Source: Escherichia phage RB32
Length of the DNA: 64,000 bases
Sequence record: NC_008515.1
Reading direction: 5' to 3' (one strand)
Shown in pieces: positions 2,618-10,191 of this stretch; position 1 is the stretch's first letter; every line of letters begins with the position of its first letter. Below the pieces are notes generated by a model. It saw nothing but the letters and a program-made list of their open reading frames with translations, did no database searches and was not told where the DNA came from. The position numbers and the translations under genes were made by a program.

Positions 2618-3091
2618 TTATTTGATTTGTTTAGCAGACCAAATGCGGTCTTTAATAATTTTTTGGATGTCTTCAACATACTCAAGAGAGTGAGCATGTG
2701 GGTTATCTTTGAAACTATAAGCACGAGCTAACTTTTGACCTTCAGTTTTGATTACTAAAAGCTCTTTAAGGATAGCTTCATATCTGGAGATAATTCCTTT
2801 AACGATATTTTTCTCTTGTGTGACTTTAGGATCTGCTTTAGGAGCAGGTTTACCTGAAGCCTTTGCAAAAGCAGCTCCAGTAGCAACTAAACTTTTCCAA
2901 GCCATACTAACTGCATTCCCTGTAAATCCTTCGGCTTTCATATCACGAGCAAATTGGAATCGTGATTCATCGGAAGCATCTTTATAGGAATATTTACCCG
3001 CGGCAATGGCTGCTTTTGCGACAGCTTGAATTTCGGTGCTAGATGCTTCATTTAACACCGCTTCATTTAAAAATTGAGCATATGATTTCAT
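2618..3091 (-). CDS. Internal-protein-like protein with capsid targeting sequence (MKSYAQFLNEA), 157 aa
   Basis: N-terminus matches the T4 IP capsid-targeting/gp21 cleavage pattern (LNE|A); late promoter upstream; flanked by near-identical hairpins. Confidence 0.65.
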   Translation of the reverse strand: MKSYAQFLNEAVLNEASSTEIQAVAKAAIAAGKYSYKDASDESRFQFARDMKAEGFTGNAVSMAWKSLVATGAAFAKASGKPAPKADPKVTQEKNIVKGIISRYEAILKELLVIKTEGQKLARAYSFKDNPHAHSLEYVEDIQKIIKDRIWSAKQIK

Positions 3092-3127
3092 CTTATTTCC
3101 TGTTTTAATTCGGGGTTTTAATATACT

Positions 3128-3135
3128 TATTTATA
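3128..3135 (-). promoter_or_regulatory. T4 late promoter TATAAATA (minus strand) upstream of IP-like gene
   Basis: Plus strand TATTTATA; about 37 nt upstream of the ATG at 3091. Confidence 0.5.
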
Positions 3136-3141
3136 CTAAAA

Positions 3142-3165
3142 AGCCCCAACCTTTCGGTCGGGGCT
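3142..3165 (-). terminator. Intrinsic terminator at the end of the tRNA/stable-RNA transcription unit
   Basis: Minus strand AGCCCCGACCGAAAGGTTGGGGCT + TTTTT; near-identical to hairpin at 2588-2610. Confidence 0.6.
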
Positions 3166-3214
3166 AAGCCTTGCGGCAACCTTGTCGGGGTTCCACCTGC
3201 TAAGGCAAGTGTTT

Positions 3215-3481
3215 GTACGAAACGCCGGGATTCGAACCCGGTTATTAAGCAGTTGACGCTACTCAATATTTTTAAAAGGCCATATCTCGACCATATCCGA
3301 ACGTTCCGTCAAAAACGCTACTCGGCTTACGGCAAAGATATTTCCTCGAATCGATAATTCGGTGCGCCGTTTCTGCTGTGATGTAAGAGGGCATCAACAA
3401 ATCATAAAGATTTATTAACACAATTCCTTACTCAGGGAACATCAGTCCGACGACTTACCGGTAGCGACCCGGTTTCTTGTT
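3215..3481 (-). ncRNA. Stable small RNA region downstream of tRNA-Arg (positional equivalent of T4 species 1/2 RNAs rnaC/rnaD); boundaries approximate
   Basis: No credible ORF; tRNA-like T-arm CCGGGTTCGAATCCCGG near the 3' end (plus 3226-3245); position matches T4 layout. Confidence 0.35.
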
Positions 3482-3558
<77 letters not shown>

Positions 3559-3561
3559 TAA

Positions 3562-4227
3562 TTAAAATTTCATTTTTCGACCTTTAAACCATCCTTCTGG
3601 AATTGGGTCAGTTTTCTTAATACGTTTAGAAACTTTTTCATCTAATGAATGAATCCACATCATACCAAATTGGGAATTCTTTTCGCCCTGTTGGTGTTTA
3701 TTTCTGGCGTGAGATTCTTTCATTTTATTAATAGTTTCAGGAGTATGATGCTTATTTAAAAATCTGCTATTATTTAAAAATTTTTCCCTGTATTCAGGAG
3801 TTGACCACAAGCGTTTAAATACATTTGAACCATGTTTACGATATTTTTCTTGAAGTAAAATATCATTTTTAAAACGTGACTTAAACGATTTAGCTCCTTT
3901 TAAACTAGCGTCTTTCTTCTGGTTTAGCATCCTAGGAATATTTATATGGTCCCATCCACCTTCACCACCAAGTTTTAAATTATACACATCTGGTCTATTT
4001 AAAAACTCTTCTGTGACAATATTTTTCTCGGCTTCAAGCATAGATTCTTTATCATCAAAATACTCTAATATTTCTTTAGAAAAATTTTCTATACCATATT
4101 TATCTTGGGCTCTTTTTAATAATTTACCAGAACCCATATATCCATCATCTAAATTTTCGGTAGAATGCACACCAATATAAATTTTATTATTAATTTTATT
4201 TGTTATTTTATAAGTGTAATGGAACAT
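3562..4227 (-). CDS. segB: GIY-YIG homing endonuclease SegB, 221 aa
   Basis: N-terminal YKITNKINNKIYIGVHS GIY-YIG motif; sits inside the tRNA cluster as in T4; same length as T4 SegB. Confidence 0.85.
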   Translation of the reverse strand: MFHYTYKITNKINNKIYIGVHSTENLDDGYMGSGKLLKRAQDKYGIENFSKEILEYFDDKESMLEAEKNIVTEEFLNRPDVYNLKLGGEGGWDHINIPRMLNQKKDASLKGAKSFKSRFKNDILLQEKYRKHGSNVFKRLWSTPEYREKFLNNSRFLNKHHTPETINKMKESHARNKHQQGEKNSQFGMMWIHSLDEKVSKRIKKTDPIPEGWFKGRKMKF

Positions 4228-4268
4228 AAATATCTCCTATTTCTAAGAGTATTTATGTTCCCAAAATA

Positions 4269-4340
4269 TGGCCCTGGGTGGAATTGAACCACCATCTGGC
4301 GATTATGAGTCGCTTGCTTGAACCTTCCAGCTACAGGGCC
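4269..4340 (-). tRNA. tRNA with anticodon CAT (T4 tRNA-Ile-like, AUA-reading after modification, or Met); no encoded CCA
   Basis: Acceptor GGCCCTG/CAGGGCC, anticodon loop CTCATAA, T-arm GGTGG TTCAATT CCACC. Confidence 0.75.
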
Positions 4341-4341
4341 T

Positions 4342-4417
4342 TGGTGCTGATTGACGGAATCGAACCGCCGACCTTCTCATTACAAGTGAGTTGCTCTACC
4401 TACTGAGCTAAATCAGC
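4342..4417 (-). tRNA. tRNA-Thr (anticodon TGT), CCA encoded
   Basis: Acceptor GCTGATT/AATCAGC, D-arm GCTCAGTAGGTAGAGC, anticodon loop CTTGTAA, T-loop TTCGATT. Confidence 0.85.
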
Positions 4418-4419
4418 AA

Positions 4420-4506
4420 CGGAGGCGATAGGATTTGAACCTATGAGTCGCCGGAGCGACTGCCGGTTTTCAAGACCGGTGCATTAAACCACTCTGCCAC
4501 GCCTCC
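4420..4506 (-). tRNA. tRNA-Ser (anticodon TGA), long variable arm
   Basis: Acceptor GGAGGCG/CGCCTCC, anticodon stem CCGGT/ACCGG with loop CTTGAAA, long variable arm, T-loop TTCAAAT. Confidence 0.85.
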
Positions 4507-4508
4507 AG

Positions 4509-4582
4509 TCTCCATACAAGGATTTGAACCTTGGACCTCCTGATCCCAAATCAGGCGCTCTACCAAACTGAGCTACACGGAG
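4509..4582 (-). tRNA. tRNA-Pro (anticodon TGG)
   Basis: D-arm GCTCAGTTTGGTAGAGC, anticodon stem CCTGA/TCAGG with loop TTTGGGA, T-arm CAAGG TTCAAAT CCTTG. Confidence 0.8.
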
Positions 4583-4592
4583 TAAATTAAAT

Positions 4593-4666
<74 letters not shown>

Positions 4667-4671
4667 AAATT

Positions 4672-4758
4672 TGGTGCGAGAAGTGGGACTCGAACCCACA
4701 AGGAAATCATTCCGCAGCATTTTAAGTGCTGTGCCTTTACCAATTTGACCATTCTCGC
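4672..4758 (-). tRNA. tRNA-Leu (anticodon TAA), long variable arm, CCA encoded
   Basis: Acceptor GCGAGAA/TTCTCGC, anticodon stem CAGCA/TGCTG with loop CTTAAAA, T-arm GTGGG TTCGAGT CCCAC. Confidence 0.85.
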
Positions 4759-4759
4759 G

Positions 4760-4832
4760 CTGGGAATAAAGGACTCGAACCTTTGCATCTAGCAGTCAAA
4801 GTGCTATGCCTTACCAACTTGGCTAATTCCCA
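4760..4832 (-). tRNA. tRNA-Gln (anticodon TTG)
   Basis: Acceptor TGGGAAT/ATTCCCA, anticodon stem TAGCA/TGCTA with loop CTTTGAC, T-arm AAAGG TTCGAGT CCTTT. Confidence 0.85.
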
Positions 4833-4918
4833 ATTATTAACAAAGGCTCTCAAGCAAGAACCCTTGATGATAGAGGGTATTAATCAGTGCGGTATGAGTT
4901 AATAATAACAAATAATTC

Positions 4919-5434
4919 TTAAAGCAAATTAAACATTTTAACAGTCGGCAAAACAATTTCTTTTTCTATATAAGAGTATTTAACACTCTCAACTACACGC
5001 AGAAAATCATAATCATAATATTCAGAAGCACTGCCTAAAATATTAATAAGTCCTTCAAACACTTTATTACCATTCACAAAGAATAAATCAAATACACGTT
5101 CTTCATCTTCTTCGGATTTATTACCAAGGTCAACTTCTATATCAAAGACCTTTTTAATGAATTCTGGATAAAGTTGGTCTGAGAACAGTCCTTCAACCAA
5201 GTATTCATAAATAAAAAGCGATTGCTCGCTGAACAAGCCATTACCACAATAACGTTCAGCTTTAGTACTAGAATGTCTGCTTTTAAACTTCTTTAAAAGA
5301 TATTGAAATTGTAAGATTTCATGCTCTTCTACGCCAAACAGTGTTTTAGTTTTATAGTTGTCACCATCATTTTCCCAGGTAGTGACATCAATTACGTAAC
5401 CCTGCGGAATTGTAGTACCTAAACAAATATTCAT
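4919..5434 (-). CDS. Hypothetical protein, 171 aa (last gene of a 4-gene operon)
   Basis: ORF track; start overlaps the stop of the upstream gene. Confidence 0.6.
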   Translation of the reverse strand: MNICLGTTIPQGYVIDVTTWENDGDNYKTKTLFGVEEHEILQFQYLLKKFKSRHSSTKAERYCGNGLFSEQSLFIYEYLVEGLFSDQLYPEFIKKVFDIEVDLGNKSEEDEERVFDLFFVNGNKVFEGLINILGSASEYYDYDFLRVVESVKYSYIEKEIVLPTVKMFNLL

Positions 5435-5727
5435 TTGCTCACCATATTAATGTAAGTATATTCAATACATTCAAGACCCAAAGGATTTTTGAAAATATCA
5501 TATTCAAGAGGACCTTTTTCCGTTTCAATAAAGAAATCAAAATTTACTGTATTAAATTTACGGTCTTCCTTCACTAATTTAACCTGAGAAGATGAACGAT
5601 CAATGTAAACCTTTTCAACCTCAAAACATGTTAAAACACCATAATCATCAATCAAGGCTTTGGCTGCTTCTTGATCATATTTATATCCATTTTCAACGGA
5701 TGATACTTTCGCATAAAGAATCATCAT
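5431..5727 (-). CDS. Hypothetical protein, 98 aa
   Basis: ORF track; translationally coupled to both neighbours. Confidence 0.6.
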   Translation of the reverse strand: MMILYAKVSSVENGYKYDQEAAKALIDDYGVLTCFEVEKVYIDRSSSQVKLVKEDRKFNTVNFDFFIETEKGPLEYDIFKNPLGLECIEYTYINMVSK

Positions 5728-6137
5728 TAACCTCTATCAACAATAGCATGAGTATGGGCATTTACAATTTGCCACCAGTCGAAACGATTAGAACCATATT
5801 CTGGTTTATTTTCATTTTCTTTAATGATATCACGCAGTTTATCTTCTGTTTCAGCATACGCAATTAAATCATCATACCCACCACAAGGATAATAATTATC
5901 ACCTGCGAATAAAAGAAAATTTACCTTAGATGGATTTACGTAATAATGGTCTTTAGGATATTTAGTTCCTCTCCAATCAGTTACTTCAACATAACGGTAA
6001 GAAAATCCATTTTTACTTTCAATCCAACTCCACGCTTCAAAAGGAGTATTAAAAACTCTATCAGGTATTAAATTACCTTCAAAATGAGAAGGATTTGCAT
6101 AATCCCCGGCATAAACATAATATTCGTTAATACTCAT
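5727..6137 (-). CDS. Hypothetical protein, 136 aa, aromatic-rich
   Basis: ORF track; abuts the upstream 61-aa ORF with no gap. Confidence 0.6.
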   Translation of the reverse strand: MSINEYYVYAGDYANPSHFEGNLIPDRVFNTPFEAWSWIESKNGFSYRYVEVTDWRGTKYPKDHYYVNPSKVNFLLFAGDNYYPCGGYDDLIAYAETEDKLRDIIKENENKPEYGSNRFDWWQIVNAHTHAIVDRG

Positions 6138-6323
6138 TTATTCACCTTTAGAAATTTTATCCATAACGATAGCAATTAAACCAATTAAAAATGCTACTAC
6201 AAGTGAAAACACATTTTCTGCTGTAGTTAATAATCCGCATATAAATCCAACAAACATTGAAAAACTAAAAGCAGAAGCAGAAATTGCAATAGCAACATTT
6301 CGAATTAATTCACAACGTTTCAT
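6138..6323 (-). CDS. Small membrane protein, 61 aa, two predicted TM helices
   Basis: Hydrophobic segments AIAISASAFSFSMFVGFICGLL and FSLVVAFLIGLIAIV; first gene after an early-promoter module. Confidence 0.5.
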   Translation of the reverse strand: MKRCELIRNVAIAISASAFSFSMFVGFICGLLTTAENVFSLVVAFLIGLIAIVMDKISKGE

Positions 6324-6391
6324 TTTATTCTCCTCAGTAGTTGATAGGGTAATAGTATCACTACCCCATCTAAAAGTAAACGGTTTATAAA
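6324..6391 (-). promoter_or_regulatory. Repeated early-promoter module (variant A) with SD, upstream of the 4-gene operon
   Basis: Reverse complement: GTTTACTTTTAGATGGGGTAGTGATACTATTACCCTATCAACTACTGAGGAGAATAAAATG; near-identical copy at 7035-7104. Confidence 0.5.
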
Positions 6392-6700
6392 CTATTTTAT
6401 TCCGCGTGATGCAATTGTGTTCTGCCGTTTAGCACCAGTTTGTTTAAAATCATGATTGTCGATTTGATCGGTACGAGCAACTCCGAATGATGATTTGATT
6501 TTAGCTTTAGATCCTTTAGTTATAGAAATAAACATCTCGGAAGCCCCTTTCTTAAAGTCCGAGGCGATTACTTCAACGCCGTTCTTAGCAAGTGACTTCA
6601 GAATTGCCTCAGCATACTCATCGTCAAGACTCGCCTGAGTATTAATAACGAATGTCTTTGGCGCAGCCGCTTCATTGATAAATTCTTTAAATGTTTTCAT
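6392..6700 (-). CDS. Internal-protein-like protein with capsid targeting sequence (MKTFKEFINEA), 102 aa
   Basis: N-terminal CTS with (I)NE|A cleavage motif; own early promoter; at the T4 ipI locus position. Confidence 0.7.
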   Translation of the reverse strand: MKTFKEFINEAAAPKTFVINTQASLDDEYAEAILKSLAKNGVEVIASDFKKGASEMFISITKGSKAKIKSSFGVARTDQIDNHDFKQTGAKRQNTIASRGIK

Positions 6701-6761
6701 TTTATTTTCCTAATTAATTTTTGATGAGATAATAGTATCACTACCCTATTTAAAAGTAAAC
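6701..6761 (-). promoter_or_regulatory. Repeated early-promoter module (variant B)
   Basis: -35 GTTTAC and TGATACTAT -10 on minus strand; shares AATAGTATCACTACC core; near-identical copy at 7363-7434. Confidence 0.5.
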
Positions 6762-7034
6762 TCATTTTAAATAAATTGCGTATTTTTTATAACCCGCTGA
6801 CTCATGACGAAGACCCTTATCATTAGCAAAACGCTCAATGTTGTTAATTTGATTCTGATCAAGTTCAGAGATGTCAAACACGAAAAAGTTACGTTTGTTA
6901 CCAACTGTTATATAGTCAGTTAAATCAATATCATATAGGTAATTGATGTCAGCAATCAAAGTCTTGACAGCTTTGCTAATTTTTACTTTTTCGTTAAAAG
7001 CAGCTTCAGAAATAAATTCTTGATACGTTTTCAT
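6762..7034 (-). CDS. Internal-protein-like protein with capsid targeting sequence (MKTYQEFISEA), 90 aa
   Basis: N-terminus almost identical to the canonical T4 IP targeting sequence; ISE|A cleavage motif. Confidence 0.7.
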   Translation of the reverse strand: MKTYQEFISEAAFNEKVKISKAVKTLIADINYLYDIDLTDYITVGNKRNFFVFDISELDQNQINNIERFANDKGLRHESAGYKKYAIYLK

Positions 7035-7104
7035 TTTATTCTCCTCAGTAGTTGATAGGGTAATAGTATCACAGCTAAAACCCTATGTAAACAACTTTGT
7101 GAAA
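7035..7104 (-). promoter_or_regulatory. Repeated early-promoter module (variant A copy)
   Basis: CTCCTCAGTAGTTGATAGGGTAATAGTATCAC ... TGTAAACAACTTTGTGAAATTA repeat. Confidence 0.5.
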
Positions 7105-7362
7105 TTACTTTAAATCTTCTAATCGTTTCTTCATCTTAGAACCATTTTTAGCGATTTCTCCTGCATCGGAGCATAATGCTAAAAGCGCTTTAACTTTAGT
7201 TTGGTCTCCTTTAAAAGATGAAGGATCGACTGCAGCAGCAAGTTCTTTAATACGAGAGAAAAGACGCTCAGCTTCAGCTAAAGCCATTCCAAGCTTTACT
7301 TCCATACCGTGGGAAGATTCAGTGATAGTAGTTTTTGTAGCAAACTCTTTGAAAGTTTTCAT
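7105..7362 (-). CDS. Internal-protein-like protein with capsid targeting sequence (MKTFKEFATK...ITE|S), 85 aa
   Basis: CTS-like N-terminus, own early promoter, adjacent to 57B where T4 carries ipI. Confidence 0.65.
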   Translation of the reverse strand: MKTFKEFATKTTITESSHGMEVKLGMALAEAERLFSRIKELAAAVDPSSFKGDQTKVKALLALCSDAGEIAKNGSKMKKRLEDLK

Positions 7363-7434
7363 TTTATTTTCCTAATTAATTTTGATGAGGTAATAGTATC
7401 ACTACCTCATCAGCATGTAAACAACTTTGTGAAA
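7363..7434 (-). promoter_or_regulatory. Repeated early-promoter module (variant B copy)
   Basis: TCCTAATTAATTTTGATGAGGTAATAGTATCACTACC ... TGTAAACAACTTTGTGAAATTA repeat. Confidence 0.5.
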
Positions 7435-8119
<685 letters not shown>

Positions 8120-9531: not shown

Positions 9532-10191
9532 TTAATTTATTAGACTTCTTAAACGAGCAGAAGTCATAAATGGAAATTTTTCTAAAGTTGGCTTTCGCCA
9601 ATATCTTGGATGACAAGTTGATTTAAAATCAAGAACAATTTTCTTTGCTTCATCAATAGTGTTAACTCCAAAGTTATCTAACATTATTTTCTTTTCTTTT
9701 TCCCACCGTTTATTAGCTAAAGCAGATTGAAGCTTTTTGTTTTTAAATGTGTCATTTTTTCTAGAATGAGTTGTTCCTTGTGTCGGACTCCATCCTCTTC
9801 CTAAAATAAATCCCTCAGGAATTATATCTCCATCATGCAATTTTATACATCTTTTACCATTATTATAATATTTTCGTCCAGTTTGTGTATTTGAAATATT
9901 ATTTGCATGTTTTCTTTTTAACCAACCATAAACTTTATTATTTCTCCTAACATATTTAGTTGAAACCGTCATTTTTATGGCTGCATAAGATAATTTTAAA
10001 GAATTTGGGTGTATTTTTACTAATAGCTGATGTGCAACATAATGCTCTTCTGGAGTTAAATCAACCAAGTTAGAAGCATCATTACTACCGCCTAAACATT
10101 TCGGAATAATATGATGTCTTTCTTTATATCCAGTAAGGGCTCTATTGCGAGCCCTATCAATTAGTGAATTATAAATTTTTTCATAATTCAT
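9532..10191 (-). CDS. Freestanding HNH homing endonuclease, about 219 aa
   Basis: HNH/His-Me motif [29 protein letters not shown]; ATG overlaps the gene 2 stop (ATGA); T4 has no gene between 2 and 3 as I recall. Confidence 0.8.

Follow-up and report, generated by a model that had tools for sequence, protein, structure and literature searches.

Four small early genes ahead of the tRNA cluster of a T4-type phage are probably independently inherited accessory cassettes

In bacteriophage T4 the genes trna.4, trna.3 and trna.2 (UniProt P13322, P13323 and P13324) follow the internal-protein gene ipI in that order and end 97 bp before tRNA-Gln. These genes have been catalogued for decades and are uncharacterized; trna.2 and trna.3 are early at both the RNA and the protein level and trna.4 at the RNA level (supplement of PMC9697503), and a literature search found no paper on the function of trna.3 or trna.4. 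PeSLs are composite promoter/stem-loops that have been linked to the modular shuffling of ORFans in hyperplastic regions, and their consensus for the T4/PST pair is TTTACW-N17-TAYWAT (PMC4122927). In this study, we analyzed a stretch of 64,000 nucleotides from Escherichia phage RB32 (NC_008515.1), hereafter the window, focusing on a block of four open reading frames (ORFs) at 4919-6323 between the internal-protein (ip) array and the tRNA genes. The initial annotation had read this block as a translationally coupled operon and as the best candidate in the window for an undescribed multi-component system. It is rather probable that the block is instead a set of independently inherited, exchangeable early accessory cassettes, each of which would act alone on a host target.

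All coordinates are positions in the window. The region 4700-6700 is 100% identical to positions 68819-70819 of Enterobacteria phage RB33 (Tequatrovirus; KM607001.1), and gene names were taken from the RB33 annotation. The four ORFs lie on the minus strand where they had first been placed, with products of 61, 136, 98 and 171 amino acids (aa): trna.4 (6323..6138), the first gene after the promoter, trna.3 (6137..5727), trna.2 (5727..5431) and orf171 (5434..4919). The first three are named tRNA.4, tRNA.3 and tRNA.2 in the RB33 record, and the fourth is RB33_136, without a name. Local tblastn gave 100%, 98.5% and 96.7% aa identity to Trna.4, Trna.3 and Trna.2 of T4, respectively, and the block is collinear with that of T4 at 97.8% blastn identity, and both phages have the three genes in the same order and on the same strand, behind the same early promoter and between the ip gene(s) and tRNA-Gln; the RB33 block differs in its fourth gene, orf171, which T4 lacks. 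Three of the four genes are thus known T4 ORFs. Their products match PHROG families 1692, 1411 and 2023 (E 6e-35 to 9e-51), all of unknown function. Because the ORFs are annotated in RB33, are each conserved in 572 to 798 phage records and have T4 orthologues that are early, they are real genes.

A tblastn search of 50,697 phage records, with one query per gene, retrieved trna.4 from 778 records (427 at 99% identity or higher), trna.3 from 763 (449 below 60% identity), trna.2 from 798 and orf171 from 572, the last including 228 Escherichia, 141 Klebsiella and 53 Aeromonas phage records as well as jumbo and Xanthomonas phages. With the four proteins concatenated, at least one gene was found in 1113 records, among which 263 covered at least 80% of the block. 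Gene content was broken down in an evenly spaced sample of 60 rows from the 1113 records. All four genes were present in 18 rows, the T4 type (trna.4, trna.3 and trna.2) in 18 and orf171 alone in 15; the other rows held trna.4, trna.3 and orf171 (two), the three T4-type genes plus an orf171 remnant (two), trna.2 alone (two), trna.4 and trna.2 (one), trna.4 and trna.3 (one) or a weak partial match (one).

Unusual patterns were verified on individual loci. The Gaprivervirus phages VR20 (trna.4, trna.3 and orf171) and VR26 (trna.4 and trna.3) lack trna.2, T2 has trna.4, trna.2 and orf171 without trna.3, and RPN226 has trna.4 and trna.2 without trna.3 and orf171. Mydovirus phages have only trna.2. 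In Klebsiella, Aeromonas, Xanthomonas, jumbo and podophage genomes orf171 was found with no detectable trna.2, trna.3 or trna.4 next to it, and remote homologues of these three genes, looked for beside orf171 in the Klebsiella, Aeromonas and Xanthomonas phages, were not found. Nearly every subset of the block therefore occurs in natural genomes, and the loss of one gene does not go together with that of the others.

The points at which genes come and go were located by blastn. Comparison of the RB33 block with T4 revealed a clean 514-bp gap corresponding to orf171, comparison with T2 a clean 401-bp gap corresponding to trna.3, and RPN226 has both gaps with breakpoints identical to those of T4 and T2, so that all four combinations of the two genes exist within Tequatrovirus: both in RB33, trna.3 only in T4, orf171 only in T2 and neither in RPN226. 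The trna.3 indel lies between A[A/G]AGGT repeats resembling Shine-Dalgarno (SD) sequences, AAAGGT at the end of trna.4 and AGAGGT at the end of trna.3; without trna.3, trna.4 and trna.2 meet at a new junction that is likewise tightly packed. Dhakavirus and Gaprivervirus have orf171 at this slot too, so T4 has lost it; the 514-bp deletion also altered the final residues of Trna.2 in T4. From the clean junction breakpoints it follows that each ORF behaves as a self-contained cassette.

Stop and start codons abut at trna.4/trna.3 (TAA directly followed by ATG, 0 nt) and overlap at trna.3/trna.2 (TAATG, 1 nt) and trna.2/orf171 (ATGA, 4 nt). An SD-like GGAG, AGGTG, GAGGT or GGTGAG stands 5' of each of the four starts, and those of the downstream ORFs sit inside the tail of the preceding ORF; as each ORF has its own SD-like sequence, independent initiation is as possible as translational coupling. 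A count by hand on the RB33 annotation of the window's first 50 kb gave 53 same-strand adjacent pairs of coding sequences, of which 22 (42%) abut or overlap in this way, and other runs of three such junctions are found in the head genes 20/67/68/21 and the baseplate genes 9/10/11/12. Tight packing is not special to this block, and coupling-like junctions are a genome-wide norm, re-formed with whichever neighbor is present. Of the translationally coupled operon first proposed, the single promoter and the junctions of 0, -1 and -4 nt stand.

The promoter itself, one copy of a repeated early promoter as initially annotated, was found at 6352..6381 on the minus strand (GTTTACTTTTAGATGGGGTAGTGATACTAT) and, with the sequence GTTTACT-N17-TGATACTAT and a 12-bp stem-loop across the -10 element, is of the PeSL type. 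Four further copies of this element are present in the window, and the string GTTTAC-N18-TACTAT thus occurs five times against 0.01 expected by chance. The copy before trna.4 matches the sigma-70 consensus at 8 of 12 positions, which is why a generic promoter scan missed it. Two weak terminator-like hairpins called inside orf171 by a terminator scan (5238-5224 and 5230-5217, stems of 5-6 bp) were discounted because the whole region gave four such sites against 2.8 expected by chance; the block is therefore a run of abutting or overlapping ORFs on one strand behind a single promoter. Like the PeSL-associated ORFan cassettes described earlier (Arbiol et al. 2010; Comeau et al. 2014), it has a consensus promoter overlapping a stem-loop and repeated before neighboring small genes, in a region whose gene content varies between close relatives. 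Unlike them, only its first gene has a PeSL of its own, and trna.3 and orf171 are gained or lost at SD/start-codon junctions rather than at PeSL repeats.

None of the four products showed a recognizable motif, in agreement with the initial annotation. Pfam and NCBIfam scans of the four proteins gave nothing above the cut-offs, a PADLOC scan gave no match at E of 1 or less, and no profile of the known defense and anti-defense families (PADLOC; Acb, Tad, Gad and others in Pfam) was matched above threshold. A PDB sequence search with Trna.3, Trna.2 and orf171 returned nothing significant, and fold searches with the orf171 and Trna.3 models returned no usable or functional match. Trna.3, Trna.2 and orf171 are all acidic, with isoelectric points of 4.6-4.9.

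Trna.4 has two hydrophobic segments in its hydropathy profile (about residues 9-33 and 37-54) with basic or charged ends, which bears out the two transmembrane segments first assigned to it; it is probably a membrane hairpin with both ends in the cytoplasm. Hundreds of phages of Escherichia, Shigella, Yersinia and Citrobacter encode a 100% identical protein. The gene stands between the ip array and trna.3, both among the genome's most variable segments, and besides coding for the protein it may provide an anchor of homology for the exchange of cassettes. Trna.3 consists of a variable N-domain and a conserved C-domain: near-identical alleles aside, its alleles are 23-51% identical in the former and 70-86% in the latter. 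The alleles are mosaic, N- and C-domain types being combined differently (e.g. P0019 and P0029), and the C-domain was found alone in one Bacillus phage. Such far faster divergence of the N-domain is typical of proteins engaged in an arms race.

The Trna.2 family is small: exhaustive phmmer searching found about 22 clusters at 50% identity, with proteins of 78-115 aa and one 44-aa fragment. Two long matches (1225 and 821 aa, one with an NYN domain) were rejected as artefacts of repeats with a biased composition. The literature search turned up a single mention bearing on function: among the T4 proteins in infected cells, Trna.2 and Inh alone were enriched with the wild-type defense protein DRT1 relative to the reverse-transcriptase-dead control (Neville et al. 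2026, PMC13275509).

The product of orf171 matches phrog_2290 over residues 1-170 (E 6.6e-68; function unknown), and a profile search yielded 268 clusters, all unnamed. The family is widespread and confined to phages. Members include RB69 ORF151c, JS98 orf138, T2 EcT2_00149 and A0A0K1Y4S9 of Klebsiella phage JD18, which share with it full-length homology, a GY...TWENDGDNYKT hairpin, F-x-S and G-N motifs and an RVxE strand. T4-type members occupy the same slot just upstream of the tRNA genes, whereas outside Tevenvirinae the family occurs without trna.2, trna.3 and trna.4. In an alignment of 106 sequences from Enterobacteria, Aeromonas, Xanthomonas and marine phages, with a mean column identity of about 19%, G12, E21, D23, D25 and R146 are invariant and Y13, W20, N22, T29, F50, G64, N65 and V147 nearly so. 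In the family the net charge has a median of -14 and is negative in 99% of the members. The AlphaFold2 model of orf171 is confident (pLDDT 90.9, pTM 0.85) and has an alpha/beta fold, in which a beta-hairpin with WENDGDNYKT at its tip is followed by a helical region and a closing strand; a search of BFVD matched only uncharacterized phage proteins, and no structural relative was found. Small acidic phage inhibitors (the phi29 uracil-DNA glycosylase inhibitor p56, Ocr/Arn-type mimics and Dmd) differ from orf171, with identities of 8-10%, matches limited to the beta-hairpin/helix core of the 171-aa protein and scores in the chance range; no significant similarity to p56-type DNA mimics extends over the whole of orf171. 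An EF-hand-like calcium site at the E-x-D-x-D loop was considered and set aside, its sole support being a non-significant match (E 0.42) to a calcium-sensor construct.

Upstream of the block lie Ip7, Ip9 and Ip5 (6392-7362) and then 57B (7435-7890, minus strand), which is, as the initial annotation said, the anti-CBASS gene Acb1 (Pfam PF23474, E 2.6e-60); T4 proteins Ip1-3 inhibit distinct GmrSD restriction enzymes (PMC12373910). The counter-defense neighborhood expected by the initial annotation is accordingly present. The N-termini of Ip7, Ip9 and Ip5 all read MKT[FY][KQ]EF, and each gene has its own near-identical PeSL-type early promoter (6732-6761, 7063-7092 and 7393-7422); the copy before Ip7 differs from that before trna.4 at 2 of 30 bases. 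Farther off, RB33_147 (9532-10191, minus strand) codes for an intron-like site-specific DNA endonuclease; it lies between genes 3 and 2 and overlaps the latter by 4 nt, and T4 has only a 106-bp gap there.

Downstream, an 86-bp spacer (4833..4918, minus strand) separates orf171 from tRNA-Gln, the first of seven tRNA genes (Gln, Leu, Gly, Pro, Ser, Thr and Met/Ile; 4269..4832, minus strand) identified by ARAGORN and Rfam, 3' of which come segB, tRNA-Arg, rnaD and rnaC. An Rfam scan of 3000-7600 detected only tRNAs and had no match in the four-gene block. The gene at 4269-4340 is called tRNA-Met (CAT) by ARAGORN and its T4 equivalent is named tRNA-Ile; it is one gene, whose CAU anticodon is presumably modified. 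The spacer is 97% identical to its T4 counterpart and contains an 11-bp hairpin (fold z = -1.96) followed by UUUGUU; the terminator scan called no canonical terminator in this spacer. A MotA-box-like sequence in it, TGCTTGA, lies about 10 nt upstream of TAATAAT, and the element could serve the tRNA cluster as a middle-mode promoter/stem-loop (PmSL-like) or act as an attenuator. The T4 tRNA precursor reportedly starts about 1 kb upstream of the first tRNA, in keeping with the promoter at 6352..6381. It is probable that the four ORFs are co-transcribed with the downstream tRNAs, which in T4 are early RNA (supplement of PMC9697503).

We propose that up to four self-contained cassettes, each with its own SD sequence, ATG and stop codon, would be transcribed from the PeSL-type promoter by host RNA polymerase within the first minutes of infection, with transcription probably running on into the tRNA cluster. 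The stop/start overlaps would reflect the compact packing typical of T4-type genomes. Each product alone would most likely be a small stoichiometric binder of a host component, Trna.4 as a near-invariant inner-membrane hairpin and Trna.3, Trna.2 and orf171 as acidic soluble proteins without a catalytic signature. The genes would be dispensable on laboratory hosts and conditionally useful elsewhere, in host takeover or counter-defense, and within this hyperplastic region recombination between T-even phages infecting the same cell would add, remove and reshuffle the cassettes.

Several points weigh against this proposal. The whole case for host-target binding is drawn from the absence of enzymatic motifs, acidity, timing and neighborhood, and the near-invariant E-x-D-x-D hairpin of orf171, together with the conserved arginine, could be a catalytic or metal-binding site rather than a binding surface. 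The 11-bp spacer hairpin could attenuate read-through into the tRNAs. Most Tevenvirinae carry trna.4, trna.3 and trna.2 together, as their similar numbers of records reflect (778, 763 and 798), and every Tevenvirinae phage examined that has the others has kept trna.4; a looser functional relationship among the three is possible and compatible with the genomics. The counts in Salmonella phage records (trna.4 in 14, trna.3 in 27 and trna.2 in 31) suggest that phages without trna.4 and with the others exist outside the Tevenvirinae set examined.

Among the alternatives, a role in conflicts over tRNA integrity survives best, although we regard it as unlikely. In this case orf171, possibly with the whole block, would be, for example, an acidic decoy or inhibitor of a host tRNA-cleaving nuclease or an accessory factor of phage RNA-repair enzymes, and its place directly before the tRNA genes would be accounted for. 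Analyses of 25 genomic contexts of the orf171 family revealed tRNA genes within 1.6 kb of the homologue in ten (RB33, T2, JS98, VR20, Klebsiella KP1079, Enterobacter SonariX, the jumbo phages K64-1, SE_PL and CBB, which we take to be RaK2-like, and an unrelated 122-kb contig); the distance is 171 bp in K64-1, and on the 122-kb contig the homologue starts 20 bp after tRNA-Lys. The homologue P0047, on a 211-kb phage contig, overlaps by 4 nt the gene on either side of it, one coding for an RNA ligase and the other for RlaP; a PNK-like kinase, an HD domain and Thg1 are encoded in the same string. RlaP is a nucleotidyltransferase associated with RNA ligases, for which a role in putting back nucleotides on damaged tRNA has been proposed. 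Two more contexts have a ligase within 4 kb of the homologue; one is an RNA ligase of the T4 Rnl1 type, the other a protein with a DNA/RNA-ligase domain. The embedding of P0047 resembles the phage RNA-repair clusters of RNA ligase, RlaP, PNK and Thg1 in the framework of Burroughs and Aravind, and tRNA gene clusters hold many of the other homologues.

On the other hand, tRNAs are 2.7-4.5 kb away in two contexts and absent within about 5 kb in 13, common descent reduces the Straboviridae/T4-type cases to a single observation, and small accessory ORFs gather in tRNA islands anyway, so that the null expectation is poorly defined. No RNA ligase, PNK or RlaP-type gene adjoins the block in the window; the nearest RNA ligase gene in RB33, rnlB, is 36 kb off, and most contexts of the family are without such genes. 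The orf171 product has no recognizable repair-enzyme domain and no match to an RNA-binding or nuclease-inhibitor fold, and T4, which repairs PrrC-cleaved tRNA, lacks orf171 altogether. The link of orf171 to tRNA damage or RNA repair is therefore suggestive but weak.

In unrelated large phages, orf171 homologues lie among arrays of small early-type genes with no conserved partner. A Pfam scan of the Klebsiella neighbor of orf171 matched only Phage_30_3 (T4 gp30.3-like family). A 604-kb metagenomic contig has a second ORF with the N-terminal hairpin motif of orf171 2 kb downstream of the first (locus L013, 8143-8601), which makes these family paralogues within one jumbo-phage-like genome, and an ArdA-type antirestriction gene lies near them. 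In the BUDD-like lineage a protein of about 455 aa of the SPFH/Band-7 type is encoded directly after the homologue, a pairing conserved both in Xanthomonas phage BUDD (L007, 4570-5934) and at a second locus (L029, 5556-6926). On a 68-kb contig (L026, 2277-5857) the homologue directly follows a pair of genes for phosphoribosyl-pyrophosphate synthetase and NAPRTase (NAD salvage) and precedes a MazG gene.

A smaller functional module within the block, in which either Trna.3 or Trna.2 would be the one soluble partner of Trna.4, tethered by it, for example, to the inner membrane, and orf171 would be unrelated cargo, seems to us doubtful. The gene trna.4 is always the first and is present at every Tevenvirinae locus examined, the three genes have near-equal record counts and genus distributions, and all Tevenvirinae variants seen keep trna.4 with at least one of the other two. 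The partner varies, however, being trna.2 only in RPN226 and T2 and trna.3 only in VR26, and trna.2 occurs without trna.4 in Mydoviruses, as does the Trna.3 C-domain by itself in the Bacillus phage. The combination of a near-invariant Trna.4 with a hypervariable Trna.3 N-domain would also be unusual for co-evolving partners. Equally doubtful is a joint proposal that orf171 founds a structurally new phage family with an acidic alpha/beta fold and acts in a tRNA-damage arms race and that, separately, Trna.2 engages DRT1. In such an arms race orf171 could neutralize a host tRNA-targeting nuclease or aid repair by RNA ligase and RlaP.

It is quite improbable that the genes do nothing for the phage and are neutral or selfish ORFans that merely fill the hyperplastic region: each is dispensable in some natural phage, recognizable domains are absent and the region is known for ORFan turnover, but Trna.4 is at least 99% identical in 427 records, orf171 keeps invariant residues across 106 sequences and has a confidently predicted fold, and the T4 orthologues are early, all three at the RNA level and two of them at the protein level. 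Finally, one undescribed system of a membrane anchor and three soluble subunits co-translated in fixed stoichiometry is extremely unlikely, for although the single promoter, the three coupling-type junctions, the gene order shared by RB33 and the distant Dhakavirus JS98 and the 263 records with the whole block would fit it, viable classical phages lack orf171 (T4), trna.3 (T2), both (RPN226) or trna.2 (VR20 and VR26), orf171 is solitary in the Klebsiella, Aeromonas, Xanthomonas, jumbo and podophage genomes, 42% of gene pairs have the same kind of junction, and the proposal fails by the initial annotation's own measure because the genes occur independently across genomes.

The block should accordingly not be ranked with true candidate multi-component systems, and in T4-type genomes the overlap of stop and start codons is no evidence of functional linkage. 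Its value lies in a list of targets, namely four early, conserved and non-essential T-even genes in a counter-defense neighborhood, for which natural knock-outs exist in T4 (orf171) and T2 (trna.3). Two leads emerge from it: Trna.2 against DRT1, and orf171 against tRNA-targeting defenses or in RNA repair. If true, the arms-race role of orf171 would explain its repeated placement at tRNA clusters and its position in one lineage between RNA ligase and RlaP.

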